A program made the translations under genes and the position numbers. From Anaerolineae bacterium (GTDB taxonomy: Bacteria; Chloroflexota; Anaerolineae; CG2-30-64-16), in the NCBI GenBank assembly GCA_034432655.1, contig DAOUBP010000038.1, positions 660 to 64,659 of the forward strand: 64,000 nucleotides of DNA, in the 5' to 3' direction. Positions within the stretch are counted from its first letter, which is position 1, and each line of letters opens with the position of its first letter. A model generated the notes under the pieces. The model searched no databases, was not told the origin of the DNA, and was given only the letters and a program-made list of their open reading frames with translations. Below, in pieces: positions 2,747-46,954 of this stretch.

Positions 2747-4054
2747 ATGCCAGCACAAGTCATCACCCTTCCCTGGGGCAATGAAGAGTTGCGATTGGAG
2801 CTGCCGCCGGCCTGGCAGGTGCAGGGGGTCCTGACCCCGGCCGCCTTGCCCGGGGTGCCTGATCCGATGGCCGAGGTGCAGCGCAGCCTGGCCGCGCCCA
2901 TCGGTGCCCCGCGGCTGAGCCAGCTGGCGCGGCCCGGCGCGCGCGTGGCGCTGGTGGTGGACGACGGCAGCCGGCCCACGCCGGTCTCGCTGATCGCGCC
3001 GGCCGTCATCGCGGAGCTCGAGGCCGCCGGGGTCCGTCGTGAGGATATCACGGTTGTCCCGGCCCTGGGCCTGCATCGCCCCATGACAGAGGCGGAGCTG
3101 GCCGAGCGGCTGGGGTCTGAGGCCTTCGCCGGGCTGCAGTGGGAGAACCACGATTGCGATGACGCCAGCCGTTTGGTCGAACTGGGCACGACGACGCGCG
3201 GGACGCCGGTGCTGCTCAATCGAACCGTGGCCGGGGCCGACCTGGTGGTGTCCATCGGCTGCATCGAGCCGCATATCATCGCCAGCTTCGGCGGCGGTTA
3301 CAAGAACCTGGTGCCAGGGGTGGCCGGCCGCATCACGGTGGCCCATAACCACGGCTTGAACTGCACCCCTGACACTTTCAACAACGTGGGCCAGCCTATC
3401 GAGCGCAACCCCATGCGGCTCGACCTGGAAGAGGCCGGCCGCATGCTCGTGCCGCCGGTGTTCATCGTCAACGCAGTGATCAATGACCGCCGCGAGATCG
3501 TGCAGATGGTGGCCGGGGACGGCGTGGCAGCCCACCGGGAGGGGGTCAGGACCAGCGCTGCGATCTTTGGGGTCAAGGTGCCGGGCGAGGCGGATGTGGT
3601 CATCACCAACTCGCGGCCGATGGACCAGGACTTACGCCAGGGGGTGAAGGCGCTGGCGAACACGGTGCGGGCGATGAAGCCGGGCGGTGTGCTGATCACG
3701 CTGGTGCGCGCGGACGAGGGGGTTGGCGTCTTCGGGCTGGCCAACCGCAAGCTGATGAGCCGGGGGATGCTCAGCGTCGTCGCACCGCTCTTGATCCGGC
3801 TGGTCCCCAAGCTGAAGCTGAAAGGCATGGGGGAGGAAGACCGTTTCTTCCTGTACTTTGCGCTCCAGGCGATGCGCCGCGGCCTGCTGCTGATGTACGC
3901 GCCGACTATCCCGGCTGCCACCAAAGAGAACCTGCCGTTCGTGCTGTTCCGAGACACGCCCGGCGCGGCCGTGGCCGAGGCTGCCAGACGTTTCCCCGCA
4001 AAGGCGGACGTCCTGGTCTTCCCCTACGGCGGCAGCACGTATCCGATCTTGTGA
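2747..4054 (+). CDS. LarA-like nickel-dependent lactate racemase family protein (DUF2088)
   Basis: ORF-track ORF 2360-4054 trimmed to ATG 2747 with RBS gaaaggagagagg (earlier part overlaps FAH gene); motifs VALVVDDGSRPTP, ITVVPALGLHRPMT, HIIASFGGGYKNLVPG. Confidence 0.75.
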   Translation: MPAQVITLPWGNEELRLELPPAWQVQGVLTPAALPGVPDPMAEVQRSLAAPIGAPRLSQLARPGARVALVVDDGSRPTPVSLIAPAVIAELEAAGVRREDITVVPALGLHRPMTEAELAERLGSEAFAGLQWENHDCDDASRLVELGTTTRGTPVLLNRTVAGADLVVSIGCIEPHIIASFGGGYKNLVPGVAGRITVAHNHGLNCTPDTFNNVGQPIERNPMRLDLEEAGRMLVPPVFIVNAVINDRREIVQMVAGDGVAAHREGVRTSAAIFGVKVPGEADVVITNSRPMDQDLRQGVKALANTVRAMKPGGVLITLVRADEGVGVFGLANRKLMSRGMLSVVAPLLIRLVPKLKLKGMGEEDRFFLYFALQAMRRGLLLMYAPTIPAATKENLPFVLFRDTPGAAVAEAARRFPAKADVLVFPYGGSTYPIL

Positions 4055-4090: not shown

Positions 4091-5239
4091 CTACAAGGGG
4101 CATGTGAGCCGGCGCAGCGCGTCGGCCAGCACCTCGACCCCGCGCAGCCATTCGGCGATTTCCACGTGCTCCTCCGGCGTGTGGTCCAGGCTGCTGTCGC
4201 CGGGGCCATACGCCAGGATGGGGCAGTTCCAGACCGGGCCGACCACGTTCATGTCCGAGGTGCCGGTTTTGAGCAGGAAGTTGGGCGCGCCGCCCTGGCC
4301 CCGCACCGCTGCGACGAAGGCGCGCACCAGGGGCGTATTCTTCTCCGCCCGGTAGGCACGTTCTTCGCCGCTGAACCGGAATGTGCCGTTGCCATCCACG
4401 CTCACCAACAGCCGCTTGAAGGTCTCCGGTGTCACGCTCTCCGGCAAGCGGAACCCCATGCGCATCTCGGCGGTCTCCAACAAACCGTCGTCGCTGGAGG
4501 CAAAGTGTCGCAGCGACGGCTGCACCTGCTCCCAGACCCGTTCCCGGCCGGTATTCAGCTCCTCGACCAGCTCCTGCACCCGCCGCCAGTAGGCGAAGGC
4601 CATCTCCGGCGCGCTGGCGGCCGGCCCGGCTGTGTGGCTCATTAGGCGCTGGAACTCCACATCGGCCAGCAGACGGCCCTTGTAGCCCAGCGCCACACGC
4701 TGCCAGCCGGTCGGCTCGCCGATCACCACCATGTCCGGCTTGCGCCGCCGCGCCAGATGGCGCGCGCCTTTCGAGGTCGCGGCCTCTTCTTCTACCGCGC
4801 CGGCGATCACGATGCGCCAGCCGGGCTGCGGGCCCACCAGCGCCGCGGCCGTGGCGAACGCGGCCAGCGGCCCCTTTGCGTCCACCGCGCCGCGGCCGTA
4901 CAACCGCCCGCCGCGTTCGTGGACACGCGGGAACCCGCGCACCGTGTCAATGTGGCCGAGGAGGAGGAGTTCTTGCGGATTGCGTACTGCATACTGCGTA
5001 TTGCGTACTACGGATTGTGGATTGGGGATTGGTTCAGCTTCCAGCTTCCAGTTTCCAGCGCCCAGCACGCCGACCGCGTTGCCGGCCGCGTCGCGGTGGG
5101 CGGAGAAGCCGTGGTCGCGCAGCCAGGCGACCAGGTGCTCGACGGCCGGCCGTTCCTCGCCGGAGGGGGAGGGGATTTCGAGCAGTTCGCGCAACAGGCG
5201 CAGGCCGCTGGCGATGATGGCTTGGGAGGATTCCCTCAT
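4091..5239 (-). CDS. lysK: M20-family deacylase: [LysW]-lysine hydrolase LysK / acetylornithine deacetylase-like; contains an in-frame 28-aa insertion encoded by 12 tandem heptamers
   Basis: LLLGHIDTV, GRGAVDAKG, context at the end of the LysW-AAA cluster; start at MRESSQ with RBS gaggtg; insertion [27 protein letters not shown] = DNA 4975-5062. Confidence 0.7.
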   Translation of the reverse strand: MRESSQAIIASGLRLLRELLEIPSPSGEERPAVEHLVAWLRDHGFSAHRDAAGNAVGVLGAGNWKLEAEPIPNPQSVVRNTQYAVRNPQELLLLGHIDTVRGFPRVHERGGRLYGRGAVDAKGPLAAFATAAALVGPQPGWRIVIAGAVEEEAATSKGARHLARRRKPDMVVIGEPTGWQRVALGYKGRLLADVEFQRLMSHTAGPAASAPEMAFAYWRRVQELVEELNTGRERVWEQVQPSLRHFASSDDGLLETAEMRMGFRLPESVTPETFKRLLVSVDGNGTFRFSGEERAYRAEKNTPLVRAFVAAVRGQGGAPNFLLKTGTSDMNVVGPVWNCPILAYGPGDSSLDHTPEEHVEIAEWLRGVEVLADALRRLTCPL

Positions 5240-5322: not shown

Positions 5323-6399
5323 TCAAAGCGCCTGAAGGCTCGATTCCGTTGTTCTCCTGATGATTTCATCCGTTACCTGATCCGTGCTGGCCCGTCCGCT
5401 CAGGTCGGGTGTGACGATGCCGGCAGCGACCGTGGCTTGCACCGCATGGCGGACGCGCGTCGCGGCCGCGGCCTGTCCCAGGTGATCCAGCAGCAGCGCG
5501 GCCGACAGGATCGCGCCGATCGGGTTGGCGATGCCGCGGCCGGCGATGTCGGGCGCGCTGCCGTGCACCGGCTCGAACACCGCGACCTGTCCTGCGCCCA
5601 CATTGGCCGACGGCGCTACGCCCAGCCCGCCCGCCAGCCCCGCGGCCAGGTCCGACAGGATGTCGCCGAAGAGGTTGGTGGTGACGATGACGTCGAAGCG
5701 GGTCGGGTCCTTCGCCAGCCACATCGCGGCCGCGTCCACCAGCAGCTCCTCGACCTGCACGTCCGGGTAGTCCCGCGCGACGGCCAGGCAGCTTTCCCGG
5801 AACAGGCCGTCGGTGAGTTTGAGGACGTTGGCTTTGTGGATAACGGTAACTTGGGGCCTGGTAGATTGGTAATTTGGTTCCAGAGATTGAACATTTGTGG
5901 TTTGCAGTTTGCGGTTTGCTCGTTGCCGTGCTTGCTCAAACGCCACTCTTGCGATGCGCTCGCTGGCCTGGCGGGTGATAACGCGCTCGACGATGGCGGT
6001 ATCGGGGTCCTCCCAACGCTCGCGGCCGCTGTAGAGGCCCTCGGTGTTTTCGCGCACGATGAGCAGGTCAATCGGCCGGCCGCCCGGCACCAATTGGACG
6101 GTCGGCCGCAGGTTGGCGTAGAGGTCGAAGTGGCGGCGCAGGGCCAGGATGGGGGAGCGGTAGCCTGCCACCTCTCCTGTTGTTGGCGACTGTGTAGCGC
6201 CGAACAGCGTCCCATCGGCCGCGGCCACGGCGCGCAGGGTCTCGTCGGGCAGGGCTGTGCCGCGGCGGAGGAAGCAGTCCCAGCCGGCATCGGCCTCGAC
6301 GAAGCGCACATCCGGCAGCACGGCCGCCAGCACGCGCGCCGCCGCGGGGATCACCTCCCGGCCGACGCCGTCGCCGGGGATCAGACAGATCGTTGGCAT
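5323..6399 (-). CDS. homoisocitrate / 3-isopropylmalate dehydrogenase family (beta-decarboxylating dehydrogenase), with in-frame repeat-encoded insertion
   Basis: [48 protein letters not shown]; ~24-aa insert [23 protein letters not shown] between ARQR and [10 protein letters not shown] encoded by heptamers ~5838-5925. Confidence 0.85.
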
Positions 6400-6466: not shown

Positions 6467-8506
6467 TCACGCCTCACGTCTCAACATCGCCAACAGCCCG
6501 CCCGCGTCCAAGATCGCCGCGACCGACGCGGAGAACGGCGGGAACGGGAATTCGCCGGCCGCGCAGGTCACAACGCCGCGGCCCAGGTCAATGCTGATGT
6601 GTGCACCGGGTTGGATAGCTGCAACCGCCTCGGGGCAGACGATGGGGAGGAGGCCGTTGTTGACAGCGTTTCGGAAGTAGATCCTTGCGAAGGACGCCGC
6701 AATGATAACCCGAATCCCCGCCGCGCGCAAACAGGTGACGGCCTGCTCACGACTGGAGCCGCAGCCGAAGTTGCGGCCGGCTACGATGATGTCGCCCGGT
6801 TGAACATTGGCCGCGAAGGTCGGGTCGAGGTCCTCCAGCGCGTGGCGGGCCATCTCGGCTTCTTCCTTGATGGTGTAGGTGTATTTGCCCGGGAAGATGA
6901 CGTCGGTGTTGACATCGTCGCCGTAGACCCAGGCGCGGCCGGAGAGGATGTTGGATGTTCGATGTTCGATGGACGATGGAGCGCGTTGCGTATTGCGTAT
7001 TGCGTACTTCGTATCTGGGGTAACCTTTTGTTCTGGAATCGAGGCTTTAGCCGGTTTCGTGGGCGAAGCAGTAGACCGGCTCACATCTCGATCCCAGTCG
7101 TCTTGATTCGGAATCGAGGCTTTAGCCGGTTTGGTGGATGAAGCATCTGACCGGCTAAGGCCTCGAGTCCAGTCGCGCAATTCCTCCATGTACGGGATCC
7201 GCCCCAGGGCCGCGCTGGCGGCGACGACCGCAGGGCTGGCCAGGTAGATCCGGGCGTCGGGGTTGCCCATGCGGCCGCGGAAGTTGCGGTTGGCGGTGCT
7301 GATGACGGTCTCGCCCGCGGCGGGGATGCCCAGGTGGTTGCCCATGCACGGGCCGCAGCCGGGCGTGCCGATCAGCGCGCCGGCTTCGAGGAAGGTCTGG
7401 ATGTAGCCCGCGGCCAGCGCATCCTGCAGCACCTGACTCGATGCCGGGACAACCAGCAACCGCGTGCCCGCGGCAACGCGGCGCACCCGTCCGTCCGGCC
7501 CGCGCAGTGCCGCGGCGGCCTCTGCCAGGTCCTCCAGCCGGCCGTTGGTGCAGGTGCCGATGAAGGCCTGGTGGACCGGGGTGCCCGCCACCTCGGACAG
7601 CGGCACGACGTTTGCGGGGTTGTGGGGCACGGCGACGACCGGCTCCAACGCGCTCAGGTCCACGGTATGACGGGCGATGTAGGGCGCGTCCGGGTCGGGG
7701 TAGAGCGCGAGCGCAGCAAGGTTCATAGGGACGACTTCAGTCGTCCCGCCGCGCTCGGAACGGCTGAAGCCGTTACGACGAACTGCCAACCGTTCCGCCA
7801 GCCACGCGAACACCGCCTCGTCCGGTTCCAGGTACGCGCTTTTCGCGCCCGATTCGGCCAGCAGGTTGGGGAGCACCATCCGGCTCTCGATGCTCAGCGC
7901 CCGCAGCCCCGGCCCGCCGATCTCGATGGCCCGGTAGATGCCCGCCTCGGGGCCGAGCAGCTTCAGCAGCCACAGGCCCAGGTCTTTGGCGGTGACTCCG
8001 GGCCGCAGGCTGCCGATCAGGTCCACGCGGATCGTCTCCGGCACGCGCAGCCAGAGCTCGCCGGTGGCCCACAGCGCGGCAACCTCGCTGCGGCCGATGC
8101 CCGCGCCGAACGCGCCCAGCCAGCCGAAGTGCGTGGTGTGGCTGTCTGCGCCCAGGATGAGCTGGCCGGGCAGCACCAGCGCCTCCTCGCTGAGCACCTG
8201 ATGGCAGATGCCCCGGCCGACGTCGAAGAAGTGCGTGATGCCCTGCTCGGCCACAAAGCGGCGCACCTCGGCGTGGTTCTGCGCGTGCTCGGCCGTGGGC
8301 GCGGGCACGGCGTGATCCAGGGTGATGGCCAGCCGCTCCGGGTAGCGCACCCGGTCGCGCCCCAGGCTGCGGAAGAGCCGGGCGATAGCTGCGGTGTTGT
8401 CGTGGCTCAGCACGATGTCGGGCCGGGCGTCCACGATCTGGCCGATGGCCGCGTGCGGCAGCCCCGCCGCGCGGGCCAGGGCTTTTTGGGCAAAAGTTTG
8501 TGACAT
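6467..8506 (-). CDS. homoaconitase / 3-isopropylmalate dehydratase large subunit and small subunit read as one ORF, joined in-frame by a ~80-aa repeat-derived linker
   Basis: N-part [15 protein letters not shown]...SHTTHFG...GTCTNGR...GCGPCMG (large subunit); C-part [19 protein letters not shown]...[11 protein letters not shown] (small subunit); no stop and no ATG/GTG/TTG start between them; linker DNA 6950-7200 = heptamers + two palindromic elements. The 40 codons upstream of ATG 8506 (to 8626) lie in a palindromic repeat and were excluded. Confidence 0.7.
6950..7034. repeat. tandem heptamers (ATGTTGG/ATGTTCG/ATGGACG... then GCGTATT/GCGTACT) inside leuC-leuD linker
   Basis: direct reading, period 7. 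Confidence 0.7.
7035..7169. repeat. two tandem copies of a ~60-bp palindromic MITE/REP-like element GGAATCGAGGCTTTAGCCGGT-N19-ACCGGCTAAGGCCTCGAGTCC (third copy at 62678-62738)
   Basis: 16-bp inverted arms; copy A right arm degenerate; lies in-frame inside the leuCD ORF. Confidence 0.7.
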
Positions 8507-9799: not shown

Positions 9800-9993
9800 T
9801 CCGTGATGCGTATTGCGTACTGCGTACTGCGTATTGCGTACTGCGTACTACGTATTGCGTATTGCGTACTGCGTGATGCATGATGCGTTAATTCGCTGAT
9901 TCGTCATTCGTCCTTCGTCCTTCGTCCTTCGTCCTTCGTCCTTCGTCATTCGTCCTTCGTCATTCGTCCTTCGTCCTTCGTCATTCGTCCTTC
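9800..9993. repeat. intergenic tandem arrays: CGTATTG/CGTACTG heptamers (9805-9885) then CGTCCTT/CGTCATT heptamers (9895-9993)
   Basis: direct reading, period 7, two families. Confidence 0.8.
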
Positions 9994-9994
9994 G

Positions 9995-11212
9995 TCAAGT
10001 AAGTGCAGTTTCGATCGCCTCTGCCACCCGCTCCAAATCCTCCTCCTCGATCACCAGCGGCGGGAGGAGGCGGAGGACGGTGGCGCCGGCGGGGAGGGCG
10101 AGGACGCCCAGGGCTTGCAGCCGCTGCAGGATGGGCGTGACTTTGACCTTCAGCTCGATGCCGATCAGCAGGCCCAGGCCACGCACCTCGCGGATGAGCG
10201 GCGAGTTGATGGCGCGCAGGCGGGCTTGCATGTGCTCGCCCAGCCGCGCGGCGCGTTGGGGGAGGATTTCGGTTGTAATCGTATCAATCGCCGCCAGCGC
10301 GGCCGCGCAGGCCAGCGGGTTGCCGCCGAAGGTGCTGCCGTGGGTCATGGGGCGAATGCCGGCGACACGCGGCCCGATCAGGCAGGCGCCCATCGGCAGG
10401 CCGCCAGCCATGGACTTGGCGACCGTCATCAGATCGGGAGCCAGGCCATAGTGCTCGCAGGCGAACAGCCGGCCCGTGCGACCGAAGCCGGTTTGGATCT
10501 CGTCCAGGATCAGCAGCGCGCCCCGCTCCCAGCAGACGCGCTGCGCCGTCTCCAGGAACCCGGGCGTCGCCGGGTGGACCCCGCCTTCGCCCTGCACGAC
10601 TTCCAGCAGCACCGCGGCCGTCTGGTCGGTCACCGCCCGTTCCAGCGCCGCACTGTCGTTGAACGGGATGTGGCTGAAGCCGGGCACCAGCGGCTCGAAG
10701 GGCTGGCGGTACTCGCGGTTCCACGTCGCCGACAGCGCGCCCAGAGTGCGACCGTGGAAGCCGCGCATGGCCGCCACGATCCCGCTGCGGCCGGTGCTCA
10801 GCCGGGCGAACTTGATGGCCGCCTCCACCGCCTCCGCACCGGAGTTGCACAGGAACGCGCGCTCCAGCCCGGCCGGCGCGATCGCGGTCAGGCGGGCCAG
10901 CAGCTCGGCGCGGCGGTCGTTGTAGAAGATCTCCGGGCAGGAGATGAGGGTGGCTGCCTGCCCGGCGATGGCCGCGACCACTGCCGGGTGCGCGTGGCCC
11001 AGGTTGGCCGCGCCCTGCCCGCCCACGCAGTCAATGTACTCCCGGCCCTCCGCGTCCCAGACCCGCGCGCCCTGTCCTCGCACGATCGCCAGCGGCCGCT
11101 TGGGGTAAACGCCGGAGGTGTGGCGCGATTCGAGGGAGAGGATGGTAGATTGGTAGGTTGGTAGATTGGTAGATTGGTAGGTTGGTGGGTGGATGGGACG
11201 AGTGTCAGTCAT
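9995..11212 (-). CDS. lysJ: class-III aminotransferase: [LysW]-aminoadipate semialdehyde / acetylornithine aminotransferase
   Basis: [45 protein letters not shown]; N-terminal ~30 aa ([22 protein letters not shown]) is encoded by the GGTAGRTT octamer array so the true start is uncertain. Confidence 0.8.
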
Positions 11213-11310
11213 GGGAGACCTCCCCCAATTCACCAAGTCCCAATCTACCAGTTCCTACTTTACCAACCCCCAATTTACCAACTTCCACTGTGCCAATCAC
11301 AGTCCCCTCC
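11140..11310. repeat. octamer array GGTAGATT/GGTAGGTT (11140-11195) and an inverted copy (11225-11310) spanning the lysZ stop / lysJ start junction
   Basis: direct reading; the two arrays are reverse complements and can pair. Confidence 0.65.
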
Positions 11311-12098: not shown

Positions 12099-12197
12099 GA
12101 GTGCTCCTGTTGCGTATTGCGTACTGCGTATTGCGTACTGCGTATCTTCTCCAGGCGGTACGCAGTACGAAGTACGAAGTACGAAGTACGGAGTATG
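12099..12197. repeat. inverted heptamer arrays (GCGTATTGCGTACTG... vs GTACGCAGTACGAAGTACG...) forming a long hairpin between lysY stop and lysZ start
   Basis: direct reading. Confidence 0.7.
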
Positions 12198-13253
12198 CTA
12201 TATCGGGTGCAGTCCTGTAGACTTCAACCCAGCCGTTTCGTCCAGCCCGCACATCAGGTTCATGCACTGCACCGCGCTGCCGGCCGCGCCTTTGCCCAGG
12301 TTATCAATGGCGGCCAGGGCCACCAGGCGGCCGGTGGCCGGCTCCAGCTCCCAGCCGACGTCGGCCAGGTTCGTGCCGGCCAGCAGCTTCGGCTCCGGGT
12401 GGCGGTAGATGCCGCCCCGCTCGTGGACGATGCGCACGAACGGCTCCTGGCCGTAGGCCGCGCGGTAGGCCCGCCAGAGGTCTTTGTCGCTCAGGCCGGG
12501 CTGCACCCACGCGTGCGCGGTCGCCAGCACCCCGCGCACCAGCTCGATCGAGGTCACCGACAGATGCACATCTCCGATCCCCAACACCTGCCGCACCTCG
12601 GCCTGGTGGCGGTGGCCGGTGGGCGCGAAGGAGCGCACCGCGCCGGCCCGCTCCGGATGATGCGACGCCGCGTTCGCGGCCGCGCCCCCCTCGGACGACC
12701 CTGCCTTCACGTCCACGATCACCGGTCGGTCGGCCCGCAGCAGCCCGGCCCGGACCAGCGGCAGCAGCGCCAGGACGGCGGCGGTCGCGTTGCAGCCGAC
12801 GCCGGAAGCATATTGCGTACTGCGTATTGCGTCGCGGTTGGCTTCGGGGAGGCCGTAGGTGAAGCGTGAGAGCCAGTCGGGGGCGGCGTGGGGTTCGCCG
12901 TAGGTGGCTTGATAGGTTTGCGGGTCGGAGAGGCGGAAGTCGGCGGAGAGGTCAATGATGCGGGGGGCGAGGCGGGCAAAGTGCTCGATGCGGCGCTGGG
13001 CCTGGCCGTGGGGCAGCGCCAGGAACAGCACGTCGCACGGGGCCAGCTCGCTGAGGGCCGTGAAGCGTATGGGCGGGATCCGGCCGCCCACGGGCCGCAG
13101 GTTGGGGTGCAGGCTGTGCACGTACTCGCCCGCGTGCGACTCGGAGGTCACCTGCGCCAGCTCGACGGCCGGGTGGCCCAACAGCAGCCGGATCAGCTCG
13201 CCCCCGCCGTAGCCGGAGCCGCCGACGATGGAGACGCGGAGGGGGGCGGTCAT
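12198..13253 (-). CDS. lysY: N-acetyl-gamma-glutamyl-phosphate reductase family: [LysW]-aminoadipyl-phosphate reductase
   Basis: [32 protein letters not shown] (active-site Cys region), NLGKGAAG; in-frame RSTQYA insertion from heptamers at ~12805-12840. Confidence 0.85.
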
Positions 13254-14212
13254 GGGCGGGCCTCCGGGGTGGTATTGCGTATTGCGTATTGCGTACTGCT
13301 TGCCGTTGAATGAGCAGTTCTCTCATGGTCTACGCAGTATGCAGTACGCAGTACGTACTCTGCCACCCGCGCCGGGATATCCACCCCCGTCGTGTGAATG
13401 CTGTTGCGGAACTCCATGGTGTGGTTCACCTCGTTGACCAGGAAGCCGCGATCGGGGTCTTCCAGCACGTCAATCGCGAGGACGCCGCCGCCCACGGCTG
13501 CCGCGGCCCGGCGGCAGAGGTCGTCCAGCTCCGGCGTCACCGGGCAGTTGGAGGCCTGGCCCCCGCGCGCGGTGTTGGTGATCCAGTGCGTCGAGCCCCG
13601 GTAGATCGCCGCGATGGTCTCGTCGCCCACGACGAAGGCGCGGATGTCGCGGCCGGGCTTGCGGATGTATTCCTGGATGTAGAAGATGCTGTGCAGGTAG
13701 TTGCCCAGCACCTCCTTGTGTTCCAGGATCGCCTCGGCCGCGTCCCGGTCGTTGATGCGGGCCAGCAGTCGGCCCCACGAGCCGACCAGCGGCTTGAGCA
13801 CGACCGGGTAGCCCAGTTCTTCGATGGCTTGCAAGGCCGCTTCGGGGGTGAAGGCCACGCGCGTGCGAGGCTGCGGGATGCCGGCCTCGGCCAGCGCCGC
13901 GCTGGTCAGCAGCTTGTCCCAGCACGTGGCCGCGGTGCGATAGGTGTTGACCGTGGGGATCCCGGCCGCCTGGAGCAGCCGCAGCGCATAGATGCCGCGT
14001 GCCGCGCTGACGGAGCGCTCGAGGACGATGTCGGCGCGGATGTTGTAGGGCGAGATTCCATCTCGCCCCACCGGCAGCACCAGCTCATCATCGTTTACCA
14101 GCTGCACCGTCGCGCCGGTGGCTTCCAGCGCGGCCAGCAGCAGCTTCTCCTCCACGCGGATGCGGGAGACGATCATCGCGACGGTGATCTGGGAGTGACC
14201 GTTCTTGCTCAT
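13250..14212 (-). CDS. lysX: RimK-type ATP-grasp ligase: alpha-aminoadipate--LysW ligase
   Basis: ATP-grasp motifs ([27 protein letters not shown]); start MSKNGHS 4 nt overlapped with lysW stop; C-terminal ~30 aa ([27 protein letters not shown]) repeat-encoded. Confidence 0.8.
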
Positions 14213-14394: not shown

Positions 14395-14510
14395 ATGTGG
14401 GTTCGTACTGCGTATTGCGTACTGCGTATTGCGTGATTCGCCATTCGTTGATTCGTTGATTCGCTGATTCGCTGATTCGCCATTCGCTGATTCGTTGATT
14501 CGCCATTTCG
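14395..14510. repeat. 5' UTR of lysW built from heptamers (CGTACTG/CGTATTG) and ~12 octamers TGATTCG(C/T)
   Basis: direct reading. Confidence 0.75.
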
Positions 14511-14511
14511 C

Positions 14512-14907: not shown

Positions 14908-15003
14908 CGGGGGCGGATGGGAGTCGAACCCACCTTGGACGCTTCCTAGGCGCCCATCACCGGTTTTGAAGACCGGGGCCGCCACCGGACGACAACCACC
15001 CCC
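14908..15003 (-). tRNA. selC: tRNA-Sec (selenocysteine), anticodon UCA, 96 nt, 8/5 acceptor/T-stem architecture with long variable arm
   Basis: GGGGGTGG-TT-GTCGTCCGGTGGCGGC-C-CCGGT-CUUCAAA-ACCGG-[26-nt variable arm]-GTGGG-TTCGACT-CCCAT-CCGCCCCC-G; aligns block-for-block with E. coli selC (TCGTCTCCGGTG..., CTTCAAA, TTCGACTCC). Confidence 0.85.
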
Positions 15004-18061: not shown

Positions 18062-18258
18062 GAGAACCTCCGTACCTTTACTGAATACTGCGTATTGCGT
18101 ACTGCGTATTGCGTACTGCGTATTGCGTACTAAGTATTCCAAACTGCGTGCTGTTATGCAGCTTACCTCGCAACTGCGCCATACGGAGTACGGAGCACGG
18201 ACTACGAAGTACGGACTACGGAGTACGAAGTACGGACTACGGAGTACGCAATGCGTCG
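18062..18258. repeat. heptamer arrays in both orientations between acyl-CoA DH start and CoA-transferase B stop
   Basis: direct reading. Confidence 0.7.
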
Positions 18259-19338
18259 TTATCTGATGAGCAATCCCGTCGGATCAATTTCCCTCAAGAT
18301 CCTTCGTTCCTCCTCCGTCGGCGCGGCGGTGACGGCCAGCGGCTCGGCCACCGGGATCGGGAAGCTGCTGTTGGCCTGGATCTCCTCCACGGTGACGCCG
18401 GGGTGAACGGCCAATAGATACATGGTCCTGGTCGCTTCGTCGAAGCCGTAGACGCCCAGCTGCGTGATCACCCGATAGGGGCCGGTGTTCGCCGGCAGCC
18501 CTGCGCGCTCACGTGCGCCCGGACCGGTCAGATAGCCTGGGGTGGTGATAAAGTCCAGCTTCTCGGCGAACTTACGGCGGTCCTGGCGCATGATGATGAT
18601 GGTGCGATGGCAGGCCGAGCCTACGTCATTTGCCCCGCCGCTGCCGGGCAATCGGACCGTAGGGTGCTCCCAATCGCCGATCACGGTGGTGTTGATGTTG
18701 CCGTACGGGTCAATCTGCGCGGCGCCCAGGAAGCCGTAGTCCAGATGGCCGGCCTGGGCCATGGACATCACGTCGTGCATGCTCGAGGCGGCCACAGCCT
18801 GATGGAAGGTGCGCGAATCGCCCACGGAGATGGGCAGCACCGGGATGTGGGGGCCGATGCCGCCGGCTTCGAAGATAATCAACAGGCCCGGCGCGTGGGT
18901 GCGCTGCGCCAGCATGGCGGCGATCATAGGCAGCCCTGTGCCGACGAACACTGATTTACGGTCTTCCAGCAGGTGTGCCGCGACACAGGCGAGCAGCTCG
19001 GTGGAGGAATAAGGAGACGTGGAAGCAGGGAGACGCGAAGATTCTCCGCGTCCCCGCGTCTCCGCCTCCCCGTGTCCCCGCGTCCCCGCGTCCCCGCGTC
19101 CCCACGTCTCCGCCTCCCCGTGTCCCCGCGTCTCCGCGTCCCCGTGTCCCCGCGTCTCCGCGTCCCCGTGTCCCCGCGTCCCCGCGTCCCCGTGTCCCCG
19201 CGTCTTCGCGTCTCCGCGTCCCCGCATCCCCGCGTCCCCGTGTCCCCGCGTCTCCGCCTCCCCGCGTCCCCGCGTCTCCGCCTCCCCGCGTCCCCGCGTC
19301 TCCGCGTCCCCGCGCGCCTGCATCATCGGATCCTCCAT
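18259..19338 (-). CDS. CoA-transferase subunit B (glutaconate/3-oxoacid CoA-transferase beta-like) with ~80-aa N-terminal extension encoded by the TCCCCGCG octamer array
   Basis: VFVGTGLPMIAAMLAQRTHAPGLLIIFEAGG, AQIDPYGNINTTVIGD, GSGGANDVGS; no in-frame ATG/GTG/TTG between the repeat and the conserved domain. Confidence 0.7.
   Translation of the reverse strand: MEDPMMQARGDAETRGRGEAETRGRGEAETRGHGDAGMRGRGDAKTRGHGDAGTRGHGDAETRGHGDAETRGHGEAETWGRGDAGTRGHGEAETRGRGESSRLPASTSPYSSTELLACVAAHLLEDRKSVFVGTGLPMIAAMLAQRTHAPGLLIIFEAGGIGPHIPVLPISVGDSRTFHQAVAASSMHDVMSMAQAGHLDYGFLGAAQIDPYGNINTTVIGDWEHPTVRLPGSGGANDVGSACHRTIIIMRQDRRKFAEKLDFITTPGYLTGPGARERAGLPANTGPYRVITQLGVYGFDEATRTMYLLAVHPGVTVEEIQANSSFPIPVAEPLAVTAAPTEEERRILREIDPTGLLIR
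19016..19320. repeat. ~37 tandem octamers TC(C/T)CCG(C/T)G
   Basis: direct reading, period 8; translates as (R/G)GDAETRG in CoA-transferase B frame. Confidence 0.85.
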
Positions 19339-19700
19339 TGCTCAGAGTGGCTGATCATGTTCACCAGTTTGCCCAGCACGTTGTCGTATGCGGCCGATAT
19401 TTCATTGCCCACGGAGGGAGCCAGATAGCTACACTTGACGGAAAACTCCAGCCAGACCTGGGTTTCAGCAGCCTCTGCTTCGGAATCGCTGAGCTTGCTG
19501 CTGAAAGCGTTGGGATATCGTCGTTTCCGCCAGGCCTCAGCTATGTTTGCGCAGACGGACCGTGAGGATCGTCGAATCTGGTCAGTTAGCGAGTAACGTT
19601 CTTCCTTCGGGAAGTCTTTTGTCAACTCAAAGATCCGCATCGCCAGCTCCATCGCCAGCTTGTACACATCCAACTCACGAAAATCCCGAATATTGCTCAT
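19323..19700 (-). CDS. four-helix-bundle protein (TIGR02436 / 23S rRNA intervening-sequence protein family)
   Basis: MSNIRDFRELDVYKLAMELAMRIFELTKDFPKEERYSLTDQIRRSSRSVCANIAEAWRKR...; start with RBS ggaggg; ORF-track N-extension (to 19844) is octamer-encoded. Confidence 0.8.
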   Translation of the reverse strand: MSNIRDFRELDVYKLAMELAMRIFELTKDFPKEERYSLTDQIRRSSRSVCANIAEAWRKRRYPNAFSSKLSDSEAEAAETQVWLEFSVKCSYLAPSVGNEISAAYDNVLGKLVNMISHSEQWRIR

Positions 19701-19703
19701 ACT

Positions 19704-19912
19704 CCCTCCTCTCCGCGTCCCCGCGTCTCCGCGTCCCCGCGTCTCCGCGTCCCCGCGTCCCCGCGTCCCCGCGTCTCCGCGTCCCCGCGTCTCCGCGTCC
19801 CCGCGTCCCCGCGTCCCCGCGTCTCCGCGTCTCCGCGTCTCCACGTCCCCGCGTCTCCGCGTCTCCGCGTCCCCGCGTCCCCGTGTCTCCGCGTCTCCGC
19901 GTCTCCGCGTCT
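19704..19912. repeat. ~26 tandem octamers TC(C/T)CCGCG (same family and orientation as 19016-19320)
   Basis: direct reading. Confidence 0.85.
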
Positions 19913-19914
19913 CC

Positions 19915-20901
19915 TCACGCCCTGAGCGCCTCGACCTCTCGCAGATAATCCAGCCGTTCCCGACCTCCTATCTTCTCCAGGTATGCCTCGAAGTCGGGCA
20001 CCCCGAAGACGAACTCCTCGAAATACTCGGCTGCGCCTGCCGCAGTTTTTGAGCGCTGCATCCAGGAGCGAATATGGTCTTCGTCGAAGTAGTAAAGCCG
20101 TGGCATCTGACAGGGATGGCTGCCGAAGGGCACTTCCACCACTGCGTCCACCAGATGGTAAGGGATGACCGTGCGCCAGGGTGTTTCCCGGATCTGTGCT
20201 TCGGGGATGATCTGCTCGGTGGTGAGGATCAGACGGCGGGCCGCGCGCGCCAGCTCGAAGTCCTCGATGATGGTGCCGTCAATCTGCGCGTTGCCGTACA
20301 TATCGCACCGGGTCACGTGGATGAAAGCGACGTCGGGGTAACAGGCGGGCAGCAGGCAGATCGGCTTGCCGCTCCACGGATCGCGCACCACCTTGGCCGA
20401 GCTGTGGGCCAGGGTGTCGGTGCCCAGCAAGCTGCGGGTAGGGATGAAGGGCAGGCCCATGGCCGCGGCCAGGAAGCGCCACTGGTAACCGGCGTTGCTG
20501 GTCTCGGCCACCACGCGGCAGTGGCCCTCTTCCACCATGCGCCGCGAGGCAGGGGAGAGGCCGCGCAGCTCGTGTCCGAAGGTGTACGCCACCTCGACCC
20601 GATCCACGCAGCCGGACGCAATGAGGATGTCGCCGTCGTGCACGGCCGTCTTGCCGGCCAGTGTCAGATGACGCTTGCGCTGGCGGATGATCTCGTAGAT
20701 GACGGCCATGCTCACGCGCACATGGCCGAAGCCGCCGGAGGCGATCAAGGCACCGTCGGGCACAAAACGCGCCACCGCCTCGGCCACCGTCATGCGCTTG
20801 TCACGCAGGTCCCGGGATTTGTTCTTCAGCACCCATTCCCGGTTCTCATCCGGGTCGTGCCAGCCGATCAGCTCGCCGTGGCCTTCTTGCAAGAGCTCCA
20901 T
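19915..20901 (-). CDS. CoA-transferase subunit A (glutaconate CoA-transferase alpha-like)
   Basis: family-level similarity over whole length; strong RBS ggaggtg upstream of ATG 20901. Confidence 0.7.
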   Translation of the reverse strand: MELLQEGHGELIGWHDPDENREWVLKNKSRDLRDKRMTVAEAVARFVPDGALIASGGFGHVRVSMAVIYEIIRQRKRHLTLAGKTAVHDGDILIASGCVDRVEVAYTFGHELRGLSPASRRMVEEGHCRVVAETSNAGYQWRFLAAAMGLPFIPTRSLLGTDTLAHSSAKVVRDPWSGKPICLLPACYPDVAFIHVTRCDMYGNAQIDGTIIEDFELARAARRLILTTEQIIPEAQIRETPWRTVIPYHLVDAVVEVPFGSHPCQMPRLYYFDEDHIRSWMQRSKTAAGAAEYFEEFVFGVPDFEAYLEKIGGRERLDYLREVEALRA

Positions 20902-26331: not shown

Positions 26332-26931
26332 CTAGTCCTCCCGGCCGGGCAAAGGATCTTCACCTGGGTGCGGCGTCACTCCACTTTCATCCCGGCCGTC
26401 GGGGCTGGCCCCGGAACCCGGCTCCGCACCAGGGGGCGACATCTGCCCGCTTTCATCCAGGGCGTCGGGGCTTGCCCCAACCTCCTCGACCCCGGGGCTG
26501 GCCCCGGAACCCGGCTCCGCACCAGGGGGCGACATCCGCCCGCTTTCATTCAGGGCGTCAGGGCTTGCCCCAACCTCCTGGACCTCGCGGCTGGCCCCGG
26601 AACCCGGCTCCGCACCAGGGGGGGTCGTCAATTCGCGCATGACCGAATCGCGGATCGCCCGGCCGGGGTCGCGGGCGGCCATGGCCAGCGCGGTGGCATC
26701 TTTGGCAACTTCCTTGATCTCTTCCAGCGGGCGGCTGATCTCCTGGTCAGGGTCCAGCGCCTGGCGCGCCTTCTCCAGCTCGCGCGAGAACTCGCGCGTC
26801 GCTTTGCGCATCTGCCGCATGCTCCTGCCAAGCTTCGCGCCGATTTCCGGCAGCTTATCGGGGCCAAAAACGGCTAGCGCCAGGATCAGGATGATGATCA
26901 GTTCAAACGGCCCGATTCCGAGAATTTCCAC
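26332..26931 (-). CDS. tatA: Sec-independent translocase TatA/TatB with long acidic/Pro-rich repeat tail
   Basis: MEILGIGPFELIIILILALAVFGPDKLPEIGAKLGRSMRQMRKA. Confidence 0.85.
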   Translation of the reverse strand: MEILGIGPFELIIILILALAVFGPDKLPEIGAKLGRSMRQMRKATREFSRELEKARQALDPDQEISRPLEEIKEVAKDATALAMAARDPGRAIRDSVMRELTTPPGAEPGSGASREVQEVGASPDALNESGRMSPPGAEPGSGASPGVEEVGASPDALDESGQMSPPGAEPGSGASPDGRDESGVTPHPGEDPLPGRED

Positions 26932-46127: not shown

Positions 46128-46954
46128 AACTCCTTCTCGCTGATGAACGCGCCGTGCCAGGTGTGATACCACACCTGCCCGGTGTAGGCGTTGACGCTGA
46201 GCATGCCGGCCGGCTTACCGTTCTGCAGGAAGTCCATGGTGTAGTAGCCGGGAAACTGCATCTCGTCGTCGGCCAGGGTGGCGCCGGGGAGGTTGGCGTC
46301 GAGCCACCCCTGTCCCGCGGCCCGCGCCTGCGCCACGGTGATGGCCGTGGGGCCGGCCGGACGATTCCACCAGCCCATCATGCCGCCGAAGCCGGCCATA
46401 TGGCCGTACTTCGTGTTCCACATCATGTTGGGGCCGGGCTCGGGGATCACGGAGCCGGTGTAGCGGTTGACCAGCAGCTCGAAGGCGCCCATGCCCGTGC
46501 TCTGCTCCTTGACCATGGCGTAGAAGTTGTTCTCGAACTCCATCACCTCGGCCAGGGTCAGGTCGCCGTTGCCATAGCGCTTCAGGTATTCCTGCACGGC
46601 TGCCGCGGCCTGATCGAGGGTGATCGGCTGGCCGCTTGCCTGGCCCGGCGCGGCGCCGAGCATCGGGCAGCCGGCCGACCAGGGGTCGGTGATGGGGTTG
46701 CCGAATCCCATCATGCCGCCGGGGCCATAGCTGCCCATCATGCTGCCGGGGCCATAGTTGCCCATCATGCCAGGGCCATAGTTGCCCATCATGCCGGGGC
46801 CATAGTTGCCCATCATGCCGGGGCCATAGCCCTGGCGGCCCCAGCCGCCCCACGCGCCGCCCGGCCCTTGGGCGAAGGCAGTCGCCGCGAAGACAGCCAT
46901 CAGCAACAGGACGGCCAATCCCAGGCCGACCACGAGTCTGGTACGCTTGTTCAT
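46124..46954 (-). CDS. secreted Met/Gly-rich repeat protein (signal peptide; 6x YGPGMMGN; PepSY-like C-terminal half)
   Basis: MNKRTRLVVGLGLAVLLLMAVFAATAFA signal; Met-rich repeats suggest Cu(I) binding; RBS aggag. Confidence 0.6.
   Translation of the reverse strand: MNKRTRLVVGLGLAVLLLMAVFAATAFAQGPGGAWGGWGRQGYGPGMMGNYGPGMMGNYGPGMMGNYGPGSMMGSYGPGGMMGFGNPITDPWSAGCPMLGAAPGQASGQPITLDQAAAAVQEYLKRYGNGDLTLAEVMEFENNFYAMVKEQSTGMGAFELLVNRYTGSVIPEPGPNMMWNTKYGHMAGFGGMMGWWNRPAGPTAITVAQARAAGQGWLDANLPGATLADDEMQFPGYYTMDFLQNGKPAGMLSVNAYTGQVWYHTWHGAFISEKEF

Follow-up and report, generated by a model that had tools for sequence, protein, structure and literature searches.

We describe an array of heptanucleotide repeats inside lysK, a gene of lysine biosynthesis, in a stretch of 64,000 nucleotides from an Anaerolineae bacterium (hereafter the window; 65% GC), whose nearest genomes are metagenome-assembled genomes (MAGs) of Anaerolineae/Chloroflexota. 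The lysK gene (4091-5239, minus strand) is intact and encodes a [LysW]-lysine hydrolase of the M20 family with 382 amino acids; the array occupies a loop at codons 60-89 (4973-5062), between the strand of residues 55-60 and the strand of residues 89-96. The comparison of this loop with its orthologues makes it probable that the array is a translated heptanucleotide microsatellite, that is, a tolerated, slippage-driven member of a dispersed 7-nt satellite that resides in a beta-hairpin loop of LysK and is filtered by the reading frame. The locus would then display a mutational process (the slippage of units) beside a selective filter (the reading frame), visible as steps of 21 nt in most of the related orthologues of a single essential gene.

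Heptamer tract in lysK

Read in the sense of the gene, i.e. on the minus strand from 5064 to 4974, the tract consists of 13 heptamers in one register, as established by autocorrelation and by Tandem Repeats Finder (TRF). It begins with the unit TGGGCGC, which is followed by a sub-array of the CTGGAAG family (TGGAAAC, TGGAAGC, TGGAAGC; 5037-5057; peptide NWKLEA), the unit TGAACCA, a sub-array of the AATCCCC family, reverse complement GGGGATT (ATCCCCA, ATCCACA, ATCCGTA; 5009-5029; peptide PIPNPQS), a sub-array of the RTACGCA family (GTACGCA, ATACGCA, GTATGCA, GTACGCA; 4981-5008; peptide VRNTQYAVR) and, after it, the unit ATCCGCA (4974-4980). At most two neighbouring units are identical. The 90-nt loop itself comprises 4 nt, 12 whole heptamers and 2 nt. 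The first-pass annotation of this DNA had listed twelve tandem heptamers at 4975-5062, equated with 28 codons. The heptamers are present, and the list is a plus-strand view of the tract; however, its first unit starts at 4981, it includes a degenerate unit overlapping codon Leu59 and omits TGCGGAT at 4974-4980, and the peptide that went with the 28 codons has 27 residues.

The lag-7 autocorrelation of 4974-5064 is 0.71, and that at lag 14 is 0.60; in 10,000 shuffles the lag-7 value was 0.25±0.05 and never exceeded 0.46, and the rest of lysK reaches 0.38 at most. Three period-7 rows were reported by TRF within the tract (4981-5009, 5012-5032 and 5035-5059). The local GC content dips to 50% in a gene of about 72% GC, and the GC content of third codon positions (GC3) is 0.46 in the insert versus 0.88 in the remainder of lysK, so that the composition of the insert is repeat-like and not gene-like. 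The heptamer period is visible in the DNA, but it rotates through all three reading frames. The tryptic peptides expected from the translated insert are LEAEPIPNPQSVVR and NTQYAVR.

As RNA, the insert folds with z = -0.80 relative to shuffles and has neither a long stem nor a palindrome. A search of the whole window against Rfam returned a tRNA-Sec only, with no match to the lysK insert. No run of four G-tracts is present in the window, and a G-quadruplex is therefore not expected.

Length classes of the orthologous loops

The DNA of the loop was read in 12 genes, the query and eleven orthologues, separate samples included, and the relationships were taken from a neighbour-joining tree of LysK with the loop masked. 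All loops in the clade of the query (ten members, 79-86% identity) are expanded to 22-57 residues, each of them different; a 9-residue loop is kept in the sister lineages of this clade. At least three other LysK lineages expanded the same loop independently, which makes at least four in total. A clear period of 7 was found in 10 of the 12 loops, the query included (autocorrelation 0.56-0.79). The loop of each related species is a different mosaic of heptamers composed of the CAGGGGN, CTGGAAG, AATCCCC, RTACGCA and CCAGCTT families. All three sub-arrays of the query recur among these relatives: the AATCCCC family occupies the 3' half of the LysK loop in the orthologues P0005 (L142) and P0008 (L139), the RTACGCA sub-array also forms the 3' end of the loop in an 85% relative (L001) and in L137, L138 and L141, and the CTGGAAG family is found in LysK of L140, L144 and L146. 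The latter family further occurs in the spacer between lysJ and the homocitrate synthase gene hcs of L001, in the homoisocitrate dehydrogenase (HICDH) gene of L001 and in a metagenome locus (L058), where it adjoins an RTACGCA array.

The lengths of the loops fall into three classes. Six orthologues (group A; 66, 87, 87, 108, 108 and 171 nt) follow 3+7n with n = 9, 12, 12, 15, 15 and 24; P0009 and the query (group B; 69 and 90 nt) follow 6+7n with n = 9 and 12; and P0047 and P0054 (group C; 75 and 138 nt) follow 5+7n with n = 10 and 19. Modulo 21 these lengths equal 3, 6 and 12, respectively, and all differences within a group are multiples of 21 nt, i.e. of three units or seven codons. For the five independent differences that are multiples of 21 nt, p is about 6e-5 if the sizes of in-frame indels are arbitrary. 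All 12 genes stay in frame through the loop. The earlier proposal that a number of units divisible by three preserves the frame is thus upheld by the orthologues. The accompanying picture of a single insertion needs revision: the array is inserted relative to the homologues, but the site is an old hot spot rather than the scene of a one-off event, and today the entire loop consists of the array.

An early verdict of our own against the multiple-of-three rule was rejected. It had noted that the excess over a 9-residue basal loop is not a multiple of seven residues, but nine residues is the wrong reference point, because the array replaces the whole loop and the lengths of the orthologue DNA fall into classes modulo 21. 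As a separate observation, the LysK loop of P0054 (L144) reads (GAAGCTG)3 followed by (CCAGCTT)14, which is one unit in both orientations and a potential long in-frame hairpin.

A low-complexity or disordered segment selected at the protein level, such as a linker, an interaction loop or a solubility loop, could also produce long and variable loops, with the DNA period as a by-product. The independent expansion in at least four LysK lineages and the hydrophilic character of the peptides, which are rich in Pro, Gln, Asn and Thr, fit this explanation, as does the behaviour of RTACGCA arrays in other proteins (see below), where the orientation is biased to the hydrophilic reading YAIRNTQ and one antisense reading, CVLRIAY, lies in a hydrophobic stretch of a member of the PMT_2 membrane-protein family. 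We nevertheless find it very unlikely, given that the 7-nt period rotates through three frames, that the GC3 of the insert departs from that of the gene, that the same units are used in non-coding spacers, and that the sister lineages function with a 9-residue loop. The peptide is also not conserved: between the query and its 85% orthologue, 9 of 35 positions are identical in the loop versus 312 of 352 outside it.

The frame-preserving steps bear equally on a contingency (phase-variation) switch, in which the gain or loss of a single unit would turn lysK off and on and create heritable heterogeneity in lysine synthesis. As in contingency loci, the repeat is located within a gene and its unit is not divisible by three, which means that slippage by one unit causes a frameshift; the tract also occupies an early part of the open reading frame (ORF), and its copy number changes over evolutionary time. 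Known phase-variation switches, however, use long perfect tracts, whereas this tract is imperfect, and lysK encodes a core biosynthetic enzyme rather than a surface or restriction function. Similar arrays occur in HICDH, ValRS, MurC and MurD, where switching is implausible, and every orthologue seen is in frame. A switch of this kind therefore deserves hardly any weight.

Host gene and predicted structure

LysK scores 391 bits against NF003367 (an NCBIfam equivalog with a cut-off of 363), in a match that is split in two around the insert, and also matches Pfam Peptidase_M20. The gene stands at the end of a co-directional operon of the aminoadipate (LysW) pathway that comprises lysX, lysY, lysZ, lysJ, hcs, a fused hacAB, hicdh and lysK on one strand. 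Residues H96, D98, D120, E150/E151, E175 and H353, which we take to be the metal-binding and catalytic residues of the M20 family, are invariant columns among 111 aligned sequences.

An AlphaFold model built from this 111-sequence alignment has a mean predicted local distance difference test (pLDDT) score of 92.7 and matches LysK of Thermus thermophilus (5xoy_B) with TMt 0.96 and a root-mean-square deviation of 1.4 Å. Residues 61-88 are coil with pLDDT of about 55-58; the model thus shows a loop predicted to be disordered in an enzyme whose predicted fold is intact. From the topology we infer that the loop joins the His96/Asp98 strand at its far end, away from the metal site. The first-pass annotation had expected an insertion in a surface loop, to be checked by an alignment of orthologues and by a structural model, and both agree with it: the alignments to 4q7a (Sphaerobacter) and 5xoy (Thermus LysK) break between residues 62 and 87 and leave 24 residues (63-86) unmatched, and the loop between GNAVGVL and ELLLLGHIDTV, with 30 residues here, has 9-13 residues in most of 120 homologues.

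Repeats are prone to misassembly, and three homologues (P0074, P0082 and P0115) lie on short contigs and begin at or after the loop, as could be expected if the insert were an assembly artefact. However, an assembly made independently, that of SRR7903765 in Logan (L016), matches the window at 3004 of 3004 bases, and orthologues of separate samples all carry in-frame arrays at this site. A pseudogene is likewise contradicted by the intact ORF, the score above the LysK cut-off and the retained invariant residues. Artefact and pseudogene can both be practically dismissed.

Dispersed arrays in the window

The heptamers of lysK are not confined to that gene. The dimer RTACGCARTACGCA, with one mismatch allowed, has 43 matches in the window versus 0.01 expected. 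RTACGCA arrays are located at 11 places within about 4-23 kb, mainly in the spacers of the lys operon and of the next operon, and an array or array-derived sequence is present in five other genes, namely HICDH, hacAB, lysY, lysX and lysZ. The RTACGCA unit, as read, is free of stops in all six frames. The inserts, linker, tails and spacers described next lie on the minus strand of the window.

The HICDH gene contains an in-frame repeat-derived insert of 23 residues (5851-5919; 42-47% GC) made of 7- and 8-nt units (GTTTGCA x2.9 according to TRF), which is devoid of RNA structure (z = +1.42); in HICDH orthologues this position and a second hot spot hold different inserts or lack one. In the fused hacAB, the large and small homoaconitase domains are joined by a repeat-built linker (6945-7175) that includes YAIRNTQ heptamers and a 75-nt tandem duplication. 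The fusion is common to most relatives, and the linker differs in each. Three RTACGCA units in lysY (12811-12832; AIRSTQYA) are found five residues before GCNAT, a motif that we assume to hold the catalytic cysteine. The length at this point is as in the orthologues, and lysY of L001 (2125-2154) has four ACGCACC units on the same codons; judging by these sequences, repeat units seem to have replaced native lysY sequence rather than lengthened it. Translated arrays also form the C-terminal tails of LysX and LysZ, both of which extend beyond the end of the family model: lysX ends in inverted RTACGCA arrays (13270-13357, with the tail at 13250-13342; …VLRTAYCV…STQYAIRNT…; RNA fold z = -3.10), and a repeat array is found in lysZ (11205-11294; …VGKLGVGKVGTGRLGLGELG…). 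The native end of LysX (EYVLRVA) resembles the antisense reading of the repeat.

The lysJ-hcs spacer (9806-9997) consists of (RTACGCA)x10 followed by (GGACGAA/TGACGAA)x14, the lysY-lysZ spacer (12108-12197) has inverted heptamer arrays that form an imperfect hairpin (RNA fold z = -2.99), and the spacer upstream of an acyl-CoA dehydrogenase gene (18086-18243) combines RTACGCA arrays with partly complementary TCCGTAC arrays (RNA fold z = -4.34).

No RTACGCA arrays are seen in the remaining 41 kb (24000-64000), though spacers exist there. A chimeric contig was considered as an explanation of the confinement of arrays to 4-23 kb and was dropped, because the GC content and the GC content by codon position are uniform along the window.

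The relative L001 carries arrays at the same spacers and at the same in-gene sites. A variant unit, ACACGCA, is used there at no fewer than four loci with 13 units in total, as opposed to one unit in the window, and this reuse points to homogenisation within the genome. The pairing of CTGGAAG-type with RTACGCA-type units recurs at three unrelated places: the lysK loop, the L001 spacer, and the gene of a membrane glycosyltransferase on a metagenome contig.

The distribution of arrays raises another explanation, namely that they are functional RNA or DNA elements, for instance sites bound by a protein that recognises heptamers, or signals for the processing or stability of the polycistronic lys mRNA, and that the copy in lysK acts alike, for example in ribosome pausing or in marking of the transcript. 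Such a role would agree with the arrays found at nearly all gene boundaries of the operon and at the corresponding boundaries in L001, with the inverted spacer arrays that fold better than shuffles (z = -3.0, -3.1 and -4.3), with the strand bias among verified in-gene copies (13:2, see below), and with the use of the RTACGCA unit in genomes of 30-70% GC from two phyla; regulatory roles have been proposed for other heptamer repeats (PMC4679880, PMC4692102). We nonetheless regard it as decidedly unlikely, even if a regulatory role of the spacer arrays keeps it a live competitor, as the units at the lysK site differ completely among species (CAGGGGN, CTGGAAG, AATCCCC) in copy numbers from 9 to 24, the lysK and HICDH inserts are devoid of RNA structure (z = -0.80 and +1.42), some arrays have decayed (P0010), and no Rfam family matches.

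Occurrence in other bacteria

Metagenomes were scanned for three perfect RTACGCA units, and at least 130 arrays were found in at least 120 contigs with GC contents of 30-70%. For at least 27 of these arrays, the surrounding ORF continues without a stop for 300 nt or more in either direction. In-frame (RTACGCA)n was confirmed by Pfam in at least 15 proteins, encoded on contigs of 38-67% GC. Among the matches listed, the sense reading YAIRNTQ is used by 13 arrays and the antisense reading CVLRIAY by two (binomial p = 0.007). The 13 sense hosts are ValRS, HICDH, TatD, MurD (twice), PrmC, MurC, an amidohydrolase, RnfC, a glycogen-debranching enzyme, a ThiH-like radical SAM protein, a PMT_2 protein and a GT4 enzyme. 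The first-pass annotation had seen purifying selection on the frame only; a filter by frame is supported by the orthologous loops, but "only" may be too strong in view of the YAIRNTQ reading in 13 of 15 verified proteins.

In the metagenome HICDH (L033), (RTACGCA)n is inserted exactly at the HICDH insert site of the window. The ValRS contig (L028), with 38% GC, groups with Candidatus Omnitrophota, in which the ValRS loop GWP-x7-YFYPT is a hot spot of diverse hairpin-type repeat-derived inserts, one of them with (RTACGCA)n. Many Omnitrophota ValRS proteins (P0135-P0214) are annotated as 'partial'.

Viral contigs hold just 7 matches to (RTACGCA)3, which gives no sign of a phage vector. Spanning ORFs antisense to the arrays in L060, L067, L129 and L053 (GC-rich contigs) were set aside, as they look like shadow ORFs; those of L060 and L067 are without a Pfam match. 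A protein search with (YAIRNTQ)6 yielded 14 short hypothetical ORFs, probably miscalled intergenic arrays, and was uninformative on in-gene copies.

Other repeats in the window and its relatives

At 19042-19918 on the minus strand, a 23S_rRNA_IVP family gene (125 residues; bAvd-like; Pfam 7e-31) has a very long octamer array on either side, (CCGCGTCC)x34 (277 bp) and x26 (211 bp). This gene sits between the genes for two CoA-transferase subunits and, from its arrangement, looks like an inserted cassette bounded by the octamer arrays. The tRNA-Sec (14909-15003, minus strand; Rfam 71.9 bits) is situated just upstream of the lys operon and adjoins heptamer/octamer arrays at 14404-14511. Longer tandem repeats are found at 26400-26622 (93-nt unit x2.4, 95% matches) and at 46718-46829 (24-nt unit x4.5), the latter within the span of a minus-strand open frame. 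In-frame inserts of a non-heptamer repeat occur in LysJ (about 4700-4820) and LysX (about 790-860) of L001 and in HICDH of L005; their peptides resemble PPSLGGKGVGGLG, SPLAGKGEV and PGEGRTLPPFPGRERGAGGVG, and the genes of the window lack them.

Proposed mechanism

A translated microsatellite in lysK would arise and change as follows. Slipped-strand mispairing or unequal exchange would add whole 7-nt units to the arrays or remove them. Changes by one or two units would frameshift lysK and be removed, so that only net changes by three units (21 nt, seven codons) and units free of stops would persist. In addition, conversion or template switching may swap unit families between loci or seed them anew, and we propose that this yields the mosaics and the genome-specific variants. 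The encoded peptide would be a neutral passenger without a catalytic role, and the only likely effect of the array on lysK would be a frameshift-prone site.

Several points weigh against this account. Two orthologous loops, those of P0006 (105 nt) and P0010 (96 nt, with a periodicity decayed to 0.40), stand outside the 21-nt classes, and the loop of P0028 is weakly period-7 (autocorrelation 0.46). The case for slippage is drawn entirely from lengths compared between species, and with no more than two identical adjacent units in the window present-day slippage may be slow. Translation of the lysK insert is assumed. Nor does neutral slippage alone explain the presence of the same families in distant phyla, the conserved positions of arrays and the strand bias; these three features hint at a sequence-specific process or at a constraint at the RNA or protein level.

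It is conceivable, though unlikely, that RTACGCA and the heptamers that accompany it make up a repeat system that spans phyla (here Chloroflexota and Omnitrophota), disperses actively and has its own sequence-specific machinery or RNA-level function; it would seed arrays into spacers and into the loops of essential enzymes and homogenise them within a genome. If this is true, uncultured bacteria would possess a general force, not described before, that drives the evolution of loops and linkers and the risk of frameshifts.

The translated microsatellite that we favour is of interest in several respects. Heptamer arrays inflate and diversify protein loops and extend the ends of genes, they probably break MAG assemblies and gene calls, and their in-gene copies flag structurally permissive sites of enzymes. 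The recurrence of one heptamer across distant genomes provides a lead on how short bacterial satellites spread.

Comparison with known repeat systems

Heptameric repeats are over-represented in bacteria, and dispersed heptamer families are known (PMC4692102, PMC4679880, PMC6749651); our searches of open-access text found no description of the present units or of heptamer arrays in proteins of Anaerolineae or Omnitrophota. The dispersed (GATAGRA)n satellites of Chloroflexus aurantiacus, which their authors read as transposed satellites (PMC6749651), come from the same phylum-level group and are likewise a single heptamer family scattered through the genome, but they have another unit and are described as non-coding, in a report that is without in-frame or orthologue-comparison data (PMC6749651). 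The TAACTGA direct repeats of Beggiatoaceae, Cyanobacteria and Bacteroidetes are mostly intergenic, and their translation as a 7-residue peptide repeat has been discussed (PMC4679880). They resemble RTACGCA in being one heptamer in short arrays that occurs in distant phyla with no evident mechanism of transfer; in contrast, TAACTGA includes stop codons when read forward and is found chiefly upstream of genes, whereas RTACGCA is stop-free and in frame inside enzymes.

The array had been called STRR-type at first (short tandemly repeated repetitive heptamers), which holds by analogy, although the units are not those of STRR1-3 and the organism is a Chloroflexota MAG. The units of STRR1-3 are CCCCAGT, TTGGTCA and CAACAGT. 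STRR are cyanobacterial, while the Chloroflexota arrays use RTACGCA, CTGGAAG and AATCCCC units, of which the dominant RTACGCA is not G-rich. STRR are reported for Calothrix PCC 7601 (as cited in PMC4692102), and among G-rich heptamers Nostoc has GGGGA(C/T)T and Xanthomonas has GGGAATC (PMC4692102). One sub-array of lysK (ATCCCCA, reverse complement TGGGGAT) matches GGGGATT of Nostoc. As with these three, the arrays here are short tandem arrays of 7 nt at many loci, mostly between co-oriented genes or near gene ends and with few intragenic copies, and the many dispersed, mainly intergenic copies that characterise STRR are found here within 64 kb. What sets the present case apart is an array inside the gene of a core enzyme (translation being assumed) with a documented evolution in 21-nt steps.

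Among the small repeats that are fused in frame into genes, i.e. RPE, BRE and RUP, the RPEs are palindromic and measure about 105-146 bp each (reviewed in PMC3184786). They share with the lysK array the in-frame presence of selfish or neutral repeat DNA in conserved housekeeping proteins, with an undisturbed fold and with extended gene ends. An RPE, however, is a discrete palindrome inserted once, whereas lysK has a tandem array that folds no better than z = -0.80 and changes its copy number in place. In relatives, inverted arrays do make up hairpin-type versions, namely in LysK of L144 and in the Omnitrophota ValRS. By analogy, then, the lysK array may be said to work like STRR and like RPE, while belonging to neither.

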